From positions 160,001-224,000 of the forward strand of contig OY760142.1 of NCBI GenBank assembly GCA_963663225.1: DNA of 64,000 nt. The letters run 5' to 3'. The notes below the pieces were generated by a model. That model saw nothing but the letters and a program-made list of their open reading frames with translations. It did no database searches and was not told where the DNA came from. Made by a program: the position numbers and the translations under genes. This DNA is from Nitrospirota bacterium. GTDB lineage: Bacteria > Nitrospirota > UBA9217. Below are positions 29,725 through 33,844 of the stretch, in pieces. How positions within the stretch are numbered: position 1 is the first letter of the stretch; each line of letters starts with the position of its first letter.

Positions 29725-30411
29725 TTAGAAGGAGATTGATTCAAATTCCGGTTTAAGCAAAATATGTTTATCTTTTAAAATCTGAATTTCACCGTTCCGC
29801 TGCCACTTATCAAGCACCCGGGTGACCGTTTCACGCGAAAGTCCGGTCATGTCCGCGATGTCCTGATGAATGAGTTTCACCTTCAAGACGACACCAATTG
29901 CATTCTTTTCCCCGTAGTTTTCAGACAGCATGAGAAAGAGCATCTTGATTCGTTGTGCGGCATTATTAAAGTTCAACATTTGTATTTTTTTGAGTGACTC
30001 ACGAAGCCGTGCACATAAAATATTCAGGAGATTATCGAGCACTCTGGACCTGCCATAGAGCAGCGAGTAGAAATCGCGCTTCGAAATAAGCGCAACAGCG
30101 GAGTTCTTTGTTGCATATATGGTCGCAGGAGCCGTTTTTCCATCAATCAGCGACAATTCTCCGAAAAAATCGCCCTGCTGATGCATTGTCACCAGTATTT
30201 CTTTTCCCTTTTCTGTCGTTTGAATCGCCTTTCCTTCGCCGTCAAGAATGATGTACATAAATTCATTGGTATTCTCTTCGCGTAAAATTATTTCATTCTT
30301 CCTGAAATTTTTAACAATAATCTTTTCCTGAACCAGGTGGAAATCCTCCGGAGTCAGCGAGTGAAAAAGCGGATTTTTTTTTAAAAAATCTATTCGATCG
30401 TATTTTCTCAA
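29725..30411 (-). CDS. Crp/Fnr family transcriptional regulator
   Basis: cNMP-binding fold (GDFFGELSLIDG); HTH IADMTGLSRETVTR. Confidence 0.9.
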   Translation of the reverse strand: MRKYDRIDFLKKNPLFHSLTPEDFHLVQEKIIVKNFRKNEIILREENTNEFMYIILDGEGKAIQTTEKGKEILVTMHQQGDFFGELSLIDGKTAPATIYATKNSAVALISKRDFYSLLYGRSRVLDNLLNILCARLRESLKKIQMLNFNNAAQRIKMLFLMLSENYGEKNAIGVVLKVKLIHQDIADMTGLSRETVTRVLDKWQRNGEIQILKDKHILLKPEFESISF

Positions 30412-30633
30412 GTGGCACCCTACGGGAGAAAATTCATCAATCCAGCATAAGAAACCTCACTGGATTGCAGCTTTTTTAATTAACTGTAGCTTGTTGTTTT
30501 CTTAATTATATCGGGATTTTAATCTGATTGATACTTTTATTTTGCTTACTGCGAATATTAAAGCTTTACTTACTATACGTAGTTTGTATTAAGGCTGCTA
30601 CCACTTTTGAACGCTGAATAATATTTTCAAAGA

Positions 30634-30676
30634 CGTGATAAAAATCACAGTTTTTTTTGTGCGTTTTGGGTATATT
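30634..30676 (+). promoter_or_regulatory. CRP-type box and -10 element (class II Crp-activated promoter geometry)
   Basis: CGTGA-TAAAAA-TCACA (30634-30649) is one mismatch from TGTGA-N6-TCACA. TATATT at 30671-30676 places the box centre at about -41.5. Confidence 0.6.
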
Positions 30677-30724
30677 TAAGTTACTATATAATATATATTT
30701 AATTAAAATCTAGCGTCTTTTTCT

Positions 30725-30816
30725 TCTCTGCTCAGAGCAAACCAAGGGAAACCTTGGGACGCAAAGCAACGGGACTAATGATTTATAGACTTTCATGTCC
30801 GCCGAGCCGCCAGAGA
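30725..30816 (+). ncRNA. GEMM-I cyclic-dinucleotide riboswitch aptamer, A20 (GEMM-Ib / c-AMP-GMP-type) variant
   Basis: P1 TCTCTG/CAGAGA; AGCAAACC; P2 CCAAGG-GAAA-CCTTGG; GACGCAAAGC junction; receptor CTAATG/CATG; 3' GCCGAGCCGCC. Register matches the c-di-GMP-I consensus. Confidence 0.9.
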
Positions 30817-30836
30817 TTTTTCTGGTGGCTTTTTCT
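30805..30836 (+). terminator. Intrinsic terminator forming the riboswitch expression platform
   Basis: AGCCGCCAGA (30805-30814) pairs with TCTGGTGGCT (30821-30830), followed by TTTTCT. The 5' arm overlaps the aptamer P1 3' strand. Confidence 0.85.
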
Positions 30837-30857
30837 ATGAAACAAGGAGGTTGTCGC

Positions 30858-31232
30858 ATGCTAAATAAAACAATACTCACTCTTCTGGCGCTGATACTGG
30901 TAGCGACCCTACAAGCTGGATGTGGCGGAAGCAGCGGACCGACCTATTCGACATCCAGCTATGGAGCTGCAACATTATCTTGGAGCCGCGCGACAACCTA
31001 TACTGATGGTTCTACGCTCACTCCTGCGGGTTACAAAATCTACTACGGCACTGCTTCAGGAACATATTCACAATATAAGCAAATTCCCCTTGGAAGTCTG
31101 GGCAATCCAAACTCACCGAGCTACACTCTCAGCCTCCCGAGGGGCGCTACTTACTACTTTGCAATTGCGGTATACGATGCGTCAAATGTTGAAAGTTCTT
31201 TATCTGCCGAAGTAAGCAAAACTGTTCGATAA
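30858..31232 (+). CDS. Lipoprotein with a fibronectin type III-like domain
   Basis: AAGGAGG RBS; signal peptide with lipobox LQAGC; FnIII strands ATLSW, GYKIYYG, TYYFAIAVYD and ESSLSAEVS. Confidence 0.8.
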   Translation: MLNKTILTLLALILVATLQAGCGGSSGPTYSTSSYGAATLSWSRATTYTDGSTLTPAGYKIYYGTASGTYSQYKQIPLGSLGNPNSPSYTLSLPRGATYYFAIAVYDASNVESSLSAEVSKTVR

Positions 31233-31303: not shown

Positions 31304-33844
31304 ATGAAAAAAATCACAAAAAATAAACTAATCTGCTACTTTTTATTAGCAGTAGTCCTCACCATCACTTCAATCATCGTTCTCTGCAACTCCGCCCAAG
31401 CTGATCCGGTTTTGCTTTTTTCCGACCTCAACTGGGGTCCAAAATCCGGTTGGGAAGGATCTACAACCAAAGGCGCGGCAGTCACCATCTGGGGAAAAAA
31501 TTTCAGCAGTTCCCGAGGCTCCAGCTATGTCACCATTAACGGAGCGCAGCTCACAAGCGCTTCTGACTATGCTGAATGGGGCGCTACCGGTCCTGCAAGG
31601 GGTCTTGAAAGAATAACGTTCTGGATCCCCAGTACCGCATCAAACGGCGACGGTCAAATTACCGTAACCGTGGGCGGCGTCACATCGAATTCACTCGCTT
31701 TCACCGTGATGACGGGATCAATCTACTTTATATCCGTGAATGATGGAAACAACAGTTACAATGGATTATACTCAACCCGTACCGGCCACACAGGTAGTGA
31801 TGGTCCATTCAAGGACATCGACATGTTTAATCCCAACTATAACCCGCAAGGGAGCACCGGTTCATATATTATCTATGTGCGAGGTGGGACCTATACCACA
31901 ACAGACCGTGTCAATGATCCAAATGCCTTTGTTGCCTTGAGAGGACCCTGCGGTTCATCGTCAAGCAGACACGCGCTGATCGGTTATCCGGCTGAGACTC
32001 CTTTATTGAATACAACAAGTGCCGAAGGCATAAATTGGAATGCCGATTACAGCCCTTATGGCAGGAACTCATATTTTACTTTCGCAAAATTATCTGGCTA
32101 CGGGGGCAAAACGGCCTTTGATTCATTAGGCGACTACAACAGATTTATCGGCAACACACTCCAGGAATATCTTGCAGAAGCATGGTCAGGCGTCATATGG
32201 GCAACCGCATCACAGCAGGTATCCATTTACGGCAATTACTTCAGTCATATAGGCTATGATTCCTACAAGCACAATATTTATCTTAAAGCACAAGCAGGAT
32301 ATACCGGCGACCGCAGCGTTCAATACGTCAACATCGGATATAATGAATTCAATAACCCCGTAGCCGGCACCGACAGCAGAGGTGGGGCGATCTTTATAAG
32401 CCGCAACAGTGACGCCGGATCATATACGACAAATAATATTTATGTCTTTGACAATTATTTTCACGACGGGAATATGGAATTTATTTATATAGGCGACAAT
32501 GTCAATATAGGAGATGTTTACATCTACAACAATATTTTCAAGGGAGGGACAAACACAAACGGCGGCGCTATTTCCTTTGCAGGAGGCACCAACAACGTCT
32601 ATCTGTATAATAATGTGTTTTATCAGACCGGATCGGGCGCGGGCGCTTTGCTCTCTGGTTTTGACACGGGAGGTCCCCTTACCTCAAGGGTATATTCCCG
32701 CAATAATGTCTTTTATTCTAACTCTTCATCCATAAGCTATCTTTACTGGGATGGGGCGAGCAAAGGCGCGCAGTTTAATTCAGATCACGATCTTTTCTAT
32801 AATGGCGGCAGCCTTCCATCCGGAAGCGGCATCACCGTAACGAATTCGCTTACAGGCAATCCTCTCTTTTCTGCACCGTCAAGCGGGGATTTTACACTGC
32901 AAACCGGCAGCCCGGCACTCAACAGCGGAACATCTTCTGTCAGCTCCGTTGTCGCGAGTGATTATGTCGGTACTTCGCGACCACAGGATTCCGCCTATGA
33001 TATAGGCGTTTATGAAACCATCGGCAGCGGAAGTACAACTCCAGCCACCTATACCGTTGGAGGTTCAATAACCGGTCTCAATGGTACGCTGGTCTTACAG
33101 AATAACGGAAGTGATACGCTGACCGTATCGACAAACGGCTCATTCTCTTTCGGGACTGCCCTGACTAATAATGCCTCGTACGACGTACGAGTATTAACGC
33201 AACCCACCGGACAGACTTGCACCGTCACGAACGGATCCGGTAATATCCCGAATGCTGATGTTACGAGTATTGGCATTACCTGTGCGAATAATCCCGGACT
33301 TACCTATACTCTCGGCGGCCAGATCAGTGGTTTGAATGGAACGGTAGTTATTCAGAATAACGGTGGAAACGATTTATCCATAACCGCCAACGGTACCTTT
33401 ACATTTTCCAGCGCACTAAGTGACGGCGCGACGTATGCGGTAAGCGTTCTCACCCAACCCTCCGCTCAGCAGTGCACGGTATCAAACGGAACGGGAACTA
33501 TATCCGGCGCGAACGTTACAAGTGTAAGAATAGTATGTGTGAACACTTACACGATCGGAGGTTCCATCAGCGGTCTGAACGGCGGCACCGTAACGCTCCG
33601 AAACAATTCCAGCGATATCGTAGCCCGGAATGTAAATGGCTCCTTCACCTTCTCCACAGCACTCTTAAACGGAGCTACCTATTCTGTTGTCGTCACTAAT
33701 AATCCTACTGGCCAAACGTGCACAGTATCAAACGGTTCAGGAACCGTTTCCAGCGCAAACGTGACAACTGTAAGTATAGCCTGTGTTGCCAACTCAACGC
33801 CGACAAAAGTCCCTTCAACAGTAACCGGCGTCACGATAAGATAA
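31304..33844 (+). CDS. Large secreted Ser/Thr/Gly/Asn-rich protein: IPT/TIG-like domain, parallel beta-helix, choice-of-anchor-Q-like motif, three Cys-pair repeats
   Basis: Signal peptide ending AQA; VTIWGKNF..VTVGGVTSN; Asn-ladder repeats (IYNNIF, LYNNVF, SRNNVF); DFTLQTGSPALNSG..DYVGTSRP..YDIGVYE. Confidence 0.8.
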   Translation: MKKITKNKLICYFLLAVVLTITSIIVLCNSAQADPVLLFSDLNWGPKSGWEGSTTKGAAVTIWGKNFSSSRGSSYVTINGAQLTSASDYAEWGATGPARGLERITFWIPSTASNGDGQITVTVGGVTSNSLAFTVMTGSIYFISVNDGNNSYNGLYSTRTGHTGSDGPFKDIDMFNPNYNPQGSTGSYIIYVRGGTYTTTDRVNDPNAFVALRGPCGSSSSRHALIGYPAETPLLNTTSAEGINWNADYSPYGRNSYFTFAKLSGYGGKTAFDSLGDYNRFIGNTLQEYLAEAWSGVIWATASQQVSIYGNYFSHIGYDSYKHNIYLKAQAGYTGDRSVQYVNIGYNEFNNPVAGTDSRGGAIFISRNSDAGSYTTNNIYVFDNYFHDGNMEFIYIGDNVNIGDVYIYNNIFKGGTNTNGGAISFAGGTNNVYLYNNVFYQTGSGAGALLSGFDTGGPLTSRVYSRNNVFYSNSSSISYLYWDGASKGAQFNSDHDLFYNGGSLPSGSGITVTNSLTGNPLFSAPSSGDFTLQTGSPALNSGTSSVSSVVASDYVGTSRPQDSAYDIGVYETIGSGSTTPATYTVGGSITGLNGTLVLQNNGSDTLTVSTNGSFSFGTALTNNASYDVRVLTQPTGQTCTVTNGSGNIPNADVTSIGITCANNPGLTYTLGGQISGLNGTVVIQNNGGNDLSITANGTFTFSSALSDGATYAVSVLTQPSAQQCTVSNGTGTISGANVTSVRIVCVNTYTIGGSISGLNGGTVTLRNNSSDIVARNVNGSFTFSTALLNGATYSVVVTNNPTGQTCTVSNGSGTVSSANVTTVSIACVANSTPTKVPSTVTGVTIR
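33047..33790 (+). repeat. Three tandem coding repeats of about 81-85 aa
   Basis: Units start TYTVGGSITGLNG (33047), TYTLGGQISGLNG (33302) and TYTIGGSISGLNG (33545); each contains QxCTVxNGxG...NVTxVxIxC-like segments. Confidence 0.9.

Follow-up and report, generated by a model that had tools for sequence, protein, structure and literature searches.

The leader at 30,725-30,836 of this Nitrospirota DNA carries a cyclic dinucleotide riboswitch of a known fold with an unusual base in its binding pocket, which raises the question of which cyclic dinucleotide it reads and which genes it would place under that signal. An earlier note, made from the sequence alone, had called it an A20-variant GEMM-I riboswitch and a probable 3',3'-cGAMP ON switch controlling surface proteins. 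To answer the question, the fold and its alternative were compared among relatives, the switch and its target genes were followed through related genomes, and the GGDEF domains of the host were read for candidate synthases.

An A20 aptamer of the GEMM-I family and its overlapping terminator

Screening of the 64,000-nt stretch of DNA analyzed here (the window) with cmscan against Rfam 15 returned c-di-GMP-I (RF01051) as the sole family above its gathering score, at 30726..30814 on the + strand (62.4 bits against a cut-off of 35, E 8.1e-10). The match spans the full model, positions 1-87 of 87, in line with the earlier claim of a complete aptamer, and the same locus was recovered with an E value of 9.8e-12 in a whole-genome search with RF01051. 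The aptamer is closed by P1, in which UCUCUG at 30725..30730 (+) pairs with CAGAGA at 30811..30816 (+) over six pairs, and contains the P1b hairpin CCAAGG/CCUUGG at 30742..30757 (+) with a GAAA tetraloop at 30748-30751. Covariation was scored in an alignment of 14 sequences with a short P3, all belonging to the group of switches defined below as class (a). P1 was 100% paired in these relatives with two pairs changed on both sides, and both-side changes were found in four of the six P1b pairs. Over the 24 pairs of the whole structure, 92.3% of cells were paired and nine pairs carried compensatory changes, a level reached by none of 500 shuffles, and slid controls were 33-42% paired. By this covariation, the two-hairpin GEMM-I fold closed by P1 is a genuine RNA switch fold.

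The base that would read the alpha nucleobase of the ligand, at 30736 (+), is an A aligned to the conserved G at position 11 of the RF01051 model, which we take, by Vc2 numbering, to be the G20 site of the Vibrio cholerae Vc2 aptamer. In the Rfam alignment, A30736 is unpaired and lies just 5' of the G-C/C-G closing pairs formed by 30737-30738 and 30761-30762. The substitution had been read the same way before, and the earlier placements of A47 at 30763, G83 at 30801, and C92/C93 at 30810/30811 likewise agree with the Rfam consensus letters. Of the claimed register-for-register match with Vc2, the helices and the pocket stand, while the P3 loop does not follow it, the numbering offset shifting there by 2. 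The A at 30763 (+), presumably the A47 site and with it the intercalating pocket adenine, and the C at 30810 (+), presumably the C92 site that reads the beta guanine by Watson-Crick pairing, were both placed by the Rfam alignment and are invariant in the 14-sequence alignment; these labels, too, follow Vc2 numbering. Beside the pocket, at the base of P2, A30765 (+) stands opposite C30808 in the Rfam alignment, an A.C mismatch where the Rfam consensus is A-U and where a standard pair occurs in 0 of the 14 relatives (alignment pair 44/92). Compared with the canonical G20/A47/C92 pocket, the A47 and C92 sites are kept and the G20 site is replaced by A30736. As judged from the alignment, the element is inside the GEMM-I fold family and outside its canonical c-di-GMP-selective pocket type, and it answers to the sequence definition of the GEMM-Ib subtype, an A at the G20 site in a GEMM-I fold.

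An intrinsic terminator, with a stem at 30804-30831 followed by a U-run (30804..30836, +), was identified by a terminator scan and by covariation. The scan stem has 12 pairs, six of them G-C, and a loop of 4, and two terminator-like sites were found in the scan versus 0.7 expected. Its 5' arm, 30806-30815, takes in the C92 site together with the 3' strands of P2 and P1 (the latter at 30811-30816), and since both structures need 30806-30815, the terminator and aptamer folds are mutually exclusive. A terminator sharing the P1 3' strand had been proposed before, and the scan stem bears this out, overlapping both P1 and the pocket. Folded without constraint, 30720-30840 adopts the terminator structure at -41.1 kcal/mol, against -26.1 kcal/mol with P1 forced, so that the terminator is favored by about 15 kcal/mol; nascent RNA that ends at 30818 forms P1, in a fold of -26.9 kcal/mol, and the terminator hairpin on its own reaches -19.5 kcal/mol. 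Across the 14 relatives, the terminator is 97.1% paired with three pairs changed on both sides, and P1 alternates between CUCUG/CAGAG and CUUUG/CAAAG with the terminator 3' arm tracking the change.

On this arrangement, the element is, as far as its sequence can tell, wired as a transcriptional ON riboswitch of the A20 (GEMM-Ib-like) subtype. RNA polymerase would make the aptamer (30725-30816) before the terminator. A bound cyclic dinucleotide would then lock P1 and the pocket, withhold 30806-30815, and block the terminator, allowing read-through into the two-gene operon downstream; with no ligand, the 3' arm at 30820-30829 would pair with 30806-30815 and transcription would end at the U-run. 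Ligand-dependent antitermination of this kind is predicted from the two competing folds, and the pilM cGAMP switch of Geobacter is likewise transcriptional and ON, with aptamer and terminator mutually exclusive (PMC9262584). A sigma-70 scan called no promoter in 30300-31000; a possible -10 box, TATAAT at 30687..30692 (+), about 35 nt upstream of the aptamer, was found by reading the sequence and is a weak lead.

Target genes and recurrence of the switch in related genomes

The terminator is followed by a ribosome-binding site, AAGGAGG at 30844..30850 (+), 7 nt ahead of the ATG of a gene for a 124-aa probable lipoprotein (30858..31232, +) with a signal peptide ending LQAGC. This protein matched no Pfam family at E 0.01 and nothing significant in NCBIfam; its closest Atlas clusters are fn3 (score 0.96), and its domain is called fn3-like here from that feature similarity alone. 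The second gene (31304..33844, +) encodes an 846-aa secreted protein with a signal peptide, a TIG-like N-terminal domain, and a right-handed beta-helix region. It matched DUF4369 and, weakly, DUF5123 in Pfam, as well as a choice-of-anchor Q domain (E 1.5e-9), and its Atlas clusters are disaggregatase-related/TIG/Beta_helix (score 0.94). The C-terminal third of this protein (33140-33800, +) consists of three tandem repeats of about 75 aa, each with a Cys-containing end motif, the last of which gives a weak DUF4369 match. The operon is read as two genes because the gene after that of the 846-aa protein is convergent. The unit is surrounded by genes for nucleotide sugars and glycosyltransferases and by a Polysacc_synt_2 gene, which form a large polysaccharide locus, and this agrees with the earlier description of an FnIII lipoprotein and beta-helix unit beside an EPS cluster. 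On the other side of the leader, beyond some 310 bp of AT-rich DNA, a divergent gene (29725..30411, -) encodes a Crp/Fnr-type regulator with a cNMP-binding domain (PF00027, 8.6e-20) and an HTH (PF13545).

Homologues of the 846-aa protein place the operon in a lineage other than Geobacter, as had been suspected: the loci at 94% and 83% identity are titled 'uncultured Nitrospiraceae bacterium', and more distant ones are titled Nitrospirota, Cytophagia, and Acidiferrobacterales. The switch was present at two of six loci with such homologues, both of the same genus and both ahead of the same operon. Two others (L051 and L053) showed no switch in 3 kb of upstream DNA each, and the upstream DNA of the remaining pair (L052 and L054) was too short to score. 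With only two same-genus loci among the six carrying the switch, its link to the beta-helix gene holds at the genus level only.

The host genome, a single contig of 3.255 Mb with 49.4% G+C, contains exactly two RF01051 matches, both with A at model position 11; looking for other A20 copies, as had been advised, yielded one beyond the locus studied here. This second copy (G000:C1:816972-817106, or L002:1501-1635, - strand; 48.5 bits) lies outside the window. Its G20 site is likewise an A, about 51 nt are inserted in P3, and it has an overlapping terminator of its own. Downstream of it are two lipoprotein ORFs, the first of them CarboxypepD_reg-like. Orthologues of this copy, ahead of a lipoprotein with the motif PKIYGT, were seen in many genera. 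No RF03167 match, no c-di-GMP-II (GEMM-II) riboswitch, and no G20-type GEMM-I was found above cut-off in the host genome.

Among 41 related genomes, 35 had a GEMM-I match. We read 150 listed matches, with 24 further ones lying outside that list, and among those 150 position 11 was G in 93, A in 56, and U in 1. A distinct group, class (a), accounts for 35 of the 150 listed matches in these 41 genomes and occurs in at least four families. Its 5' end has the form CUYUGCUCAGAGCAAAC, with a conserved 5' motif ending in CAGAGCAAAC, and its 3' end has the form GYCGRGCCGCCARA. All 35 listed members have A at the G20 site, and in all 35 the terminator 5' arm takes in the P1 3' strand. G-type GEMM-I copies share many genomes with these switches, and the retention of A in 35 of 35 alongside them argues that A is not a neutral stand-in for G; the A20 of class (a) is, on this pattern of conservation, under constraint. 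The genes behind the switches differ as well. Using a crude signal-peptide and lipobox pattern, an ORF of this kind was found within 230 nt downstream of 21 of the 35 class (a) matches, compared with 1 of 93 G-type and 3 of 21 other A-type matches among those listed. As far as this count of neighboring ORFs reaches, class (a) has its own gene class or regulon, mostly lipoproteins.

In a wider sample of the phylum, the 16-nt 5' signature of the class was present in 75 of 401 genomes, with 1 hit for a reversed control pattern. By family, it occurred in 47 of 63 genomes of f1, 6 of 6 of f2, 3 of 3 of f6, 5 of 11 of f8, 1 of 76 of f9, 0 of 28 of f10, and 0 of 35 of f11.

Several other GEMM-I arrangements were seen in the relatives. 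In the commonest type (L025, L028, L036, L126, and others), G is kept at the G20 site but the closing pair is flipped to C-G; this type scores best with RF03167, the c-di-GMP-I-GGC variant model. Up to 27 GEMM-I copies were found in one related genome. Four matches of 38-41 bits (L188, L189, and L196 in G023; L193 in G016) carry CU, and not GC, after an A at the G20 site, a 5' motif that appears to resemble that of Geobacter GEMM-Ib. At L088 (G015:C9:281531-282610), a G-type and a class (a) GEMM-I are separated by about 410 nt on one strand and could be a tandem or adjacent units, and at L034:2328-2525 (+) a cobalamin riboswitch (114.9 bits) and a tRNA adjoin an A-type GEMM-I.

Candidate cGAMP synthases

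The host genome has 17 GGDEF matches. In 13 of these domains an Asp is combined with a GG[D/E]EF motif, and c-di-GMP is expected in the host on that account; two others carry Ser at the site of GacA Ser348. A domain search of the genome found no SMODS-type cGAMP synthase. The first Ser-type enzyme is a GAF-GGDEF protein (G000:C1:1947302-1948504, or L012:847-2052, + strand) with a GGEEF motif. Its best PDB match is 6d9m, a Geobacter Hypr GGDEF domain, at 115 bits, with Ser aligned on Ser and the Tyr304-equivalent kept. Tyr, Ser, and GGEEF are all retained in 24 of 24 family orthologues (61-100% identity), as is a 2-residue insertion that turns the RxxD site ahead of the motif into RxxxxD. Compared with GacA (GSU1658/Gmet_1914), the host protein shares the Ser at the base-reading site, the GAF-GGDEF architecture, and the cross-dimer Tyr, and differs in its GGEEF motif, in the RxxxxD produced by the insertion, and in lacking a REC domain.

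Natural Ser/Thr enzymes are described as carrying GGDE[F/Y] exclusively, and GacA and WspR mutants that paired Ser with GGEEF showed no activity, the combination being said to be absent in nature (PMC6456294). Where GGDE[F/Y] would be expected of a Hypr enzyme, every one of the 24 orthologues has GGEEF. We do not file the GAF-GGDEF protein as a Hypr GGDEF; it is Hypr-like by its residues, and cGAMP synthesis is at most a prediction for it.

The second Ser-type enzyme is a transmembrane HAMP-GGDDF protein (G000:C1:2398238-2399635, or L016:1306-2706, - strand), with Ser at the base-reading site. Thirty loci related to it have Ser in 18 cases, Asn in 3, and Asp in 5, and are unreadable in 4. A host paralogue at G000:C1:2082211-2083569 has Asn at this site and a DGDDF motif. 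The HAMP-GGDDF protein resembles, by published description only, GSU1937, which also has a GGDDF motif and is reported to contribute to Geobacter cGAMP, with an activity known from a single fusion construct and from deletion phenotypes (PMC8835794). The search for Hypr-GGDEF enzymes advised in the earlier note yielded these two Ser-type GGDEFs, whose GGEEF and GGDDF motifs fall outside the published Hypr definition.

Canonical signatures were seen outside the host family. In three class (a) genomes of other families, all GGDEF domains were read (48 matches), and each genome had exactly one canonical Ser/GGDEF. Canonical, Hypr-signature Ser/GGDEF enzymes of GAF or REC-GAF type were found in ten genomes of other families of the phylum (L284:200-1618 in G029 and L278:1468-2544 in G031, both on the - strand, and eight further among L279-L287), and one out-family REC-GAF-GGDEF scored 177.5 bits to 6d9m versus 120 to PleD. 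A20 switches are lacking in some of these genomes, and the relatives that combine a Ser-type GGDEF with no A20 switch are G027, G028, G030, and G037, so that the co-occurrence of Ser-GGDEF and A20 is one-way only, among related genomes that are not independent.

Ligand of the switch and its meaning

The choice between cGAMP and c-di-GMP is not decided by sequence alone. We infer that the physiological ligand is most likely 3',3'-cGAMP, a reading to which we give about an even chance. The ligand would be read as A by A30736 and as G by C30810 and would be made by one of the two Ser-type GGDEF enzymes of the genome, with some response to c-di-GMP possible. In its favor are the invariance of A across class (a), the separate gene class behind these switches, and the presence of Ser-type GGDEFs, whereas the RxxxxD insertion of the GAF-GGDEF protein, the lack of a SMODS domain, and the one-way co-occurrence count against it. 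The reading is consistent with the Gs1761 aptamer, whose A20 pairs with the cGAMP adenine (PMC6140456), and with the broader likeness to the Geobacter GEMM-Ib switches (pilM, Gs1761/pgcA, and Gm0970), which share the GEMM-I fold, the A at the G20 site, a place ahead of surface or extracellular functions, and Ser-type (Hypr-like) GGDEFs in the genome or lineage. The differences from Geobacter are the Nitrospirota lineage, the 5' motif ending CAGAGCAAAC and the A.C mismatch at the P2 base of class (a), both compared by description, the targets, which are here lipoproteins and a beta-helix protein and not cytochromes and pili, and the host Ser-type enzymes, which carry GGEEF or GGDDF and not GGDEF.

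The pocket base by itself does not settle selectivity, and A20 has been called a selectivity factor and no hard filter (PMC9262584). Vc2 belongs to the same Rfam family and shares the helices and the A47 and C92 sites; the wild type differs from the present aptamer in having G20 and discriminates against cGAMP, whereas its G20A mutant has the same pocket change as A30736 and bound c-di-GMP at 53 nM and cGAMP at 120 nM (PMC6140456). Since that mutant is bispecific, A alone gives no selectivity. The Clostridium beijerinckii aptamer Cbe 1-2, likened here by description, is a natural A20 GEMM-I from outside Geobacter and bound c-di-GMP more tightly (30 nM) than cGAMP (463 nM) (PMC6140456). Taken together, published A20 aptamers span a range from more than 1000-fold cGAMP-selective to c-di-GMP-preferring (PMC6456294, PMC6140456). 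The caution in the earlier note that some A20 aptamers are promiscuous agrees with the affinities reported for Vc2 G20A and Cbe 1-2.

It is therefore quite plausible that the same fold and ON mechanism are driven in the cell by c-di-GMP, alone or as part of a bispecific sensor. The guanine would be bound through a protonated A20, and the operon would be an ordinary c-di-GMP-induced surface or matrix unit. Cbe 1-2 is a precedent, a protonated A20 gives tight c-di-GMP binding in Vc2 G20A, Gs1761, and Cbe 1-2, and bispecific binding is called widespread in the class by the same authors (PMC6140456). The Ser/GGEEF enzyme may, moreover, be inactive under the Goldilocks model (PMC6456294). Asp-type GGDEF domains are numerous in the host, and other c-di-GMP riboswitches are lacking; with neither a G20-type GEMM-I nor a GEMM-II, the host has no visible need to tell two signals apart. 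Surface proteins near exopolysaccharide loci are typical c-di-GMP targets, and the present operon, beside its exopolysaccharide locus, fits them. Against a c-di-GMP-driven switch stand the retention of A in 35 of 35 class (a) members despite G-type copies in the same genomes, the different kinds of genes that class (a) and G-type switches precede, and the strict conservation of Ser-type GGDEFs in the family.

Two further readings are far less favored. It is improbable that the pocket, retuned by the A.C mismatch, reads another dinucleotide, such as c-di-AMP, a linear dinucleotide, or a mixed product of variant GGDEFs. The A30765.C30808 mismatch, invariant in 14 of 14 sequences against an A-U consensus, would suit such a ligand, and the in vitro products of Hypr GGDEFs can include all three dinucleotides (PMC6456294), but the unchanged C92 and A47 sites mean that one guanine is still expected, and no precedent was found in the parts of the literature consulted. 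It is very improbable that the element is a degenerate remnant or a chance resemblance that regulates nothing, given its bit score and E value, the compensatory changes in both aptamer and terminator, the retention of the switch ahead of the same operon at two same-genus loci, and the excess of the 16-nt signature over its reversed control.

Returning to 3',3'-cGAMP as the preferred ligand, a broader proposal can be put forward tentatively, as a possibility we hold to be rather unlikely as a whole: class (a) may be a cGAMP-selective subclass of certain Nitrospirota families that governs a surface-lipoprotein regulon, with the signal in the host family coming from an unrecognized Hypr subtype marked by Ser348, Tyr304, GGEEF, and a disrupted RxxD.

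The element represents a known riboswitch type in a lineage for which the literature searched gave no report. Our search found none joining Nitrospirota with GEMM-I, with the proviso that the supplements of the founding studies may list Nitrospirota examples; by title or abstract, nothing on Nitrospirota together with cGAMP and GGDEF was on topic, and a 2026 dual-biosensor preprint gave nothing on pocket determinants.

If the ligand is c-di-GMP, the switch would be a further case against annotating cGAMP riboswitches by A20 alone, which matters for automated annotation. For GGDEF enzymes, the strictly conserved Ser/GGEEF family offers a direct natural test of the Goldilocks model: a combination described in the 2019 eLife paper as absent from nature (PMC6456294) is seen here in 24 of 24 orthologues, and if the enzyme makes cGAMP, the Goldilocks rule, which describes how GGDEF enzymes recognize their substrates, would have an exception in nature. 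Should the switch read cGAMP, Hypr-type signaling by this dinucleotide would reach beyond Geobacter, Myxococcus, and Bdellovibrio into anaerobic Nitrospirota, and the signal would be tied there to surface lipoproteins and a polysaccharide-active-looking beta-helix protein, and not to extracellular electron transfer.
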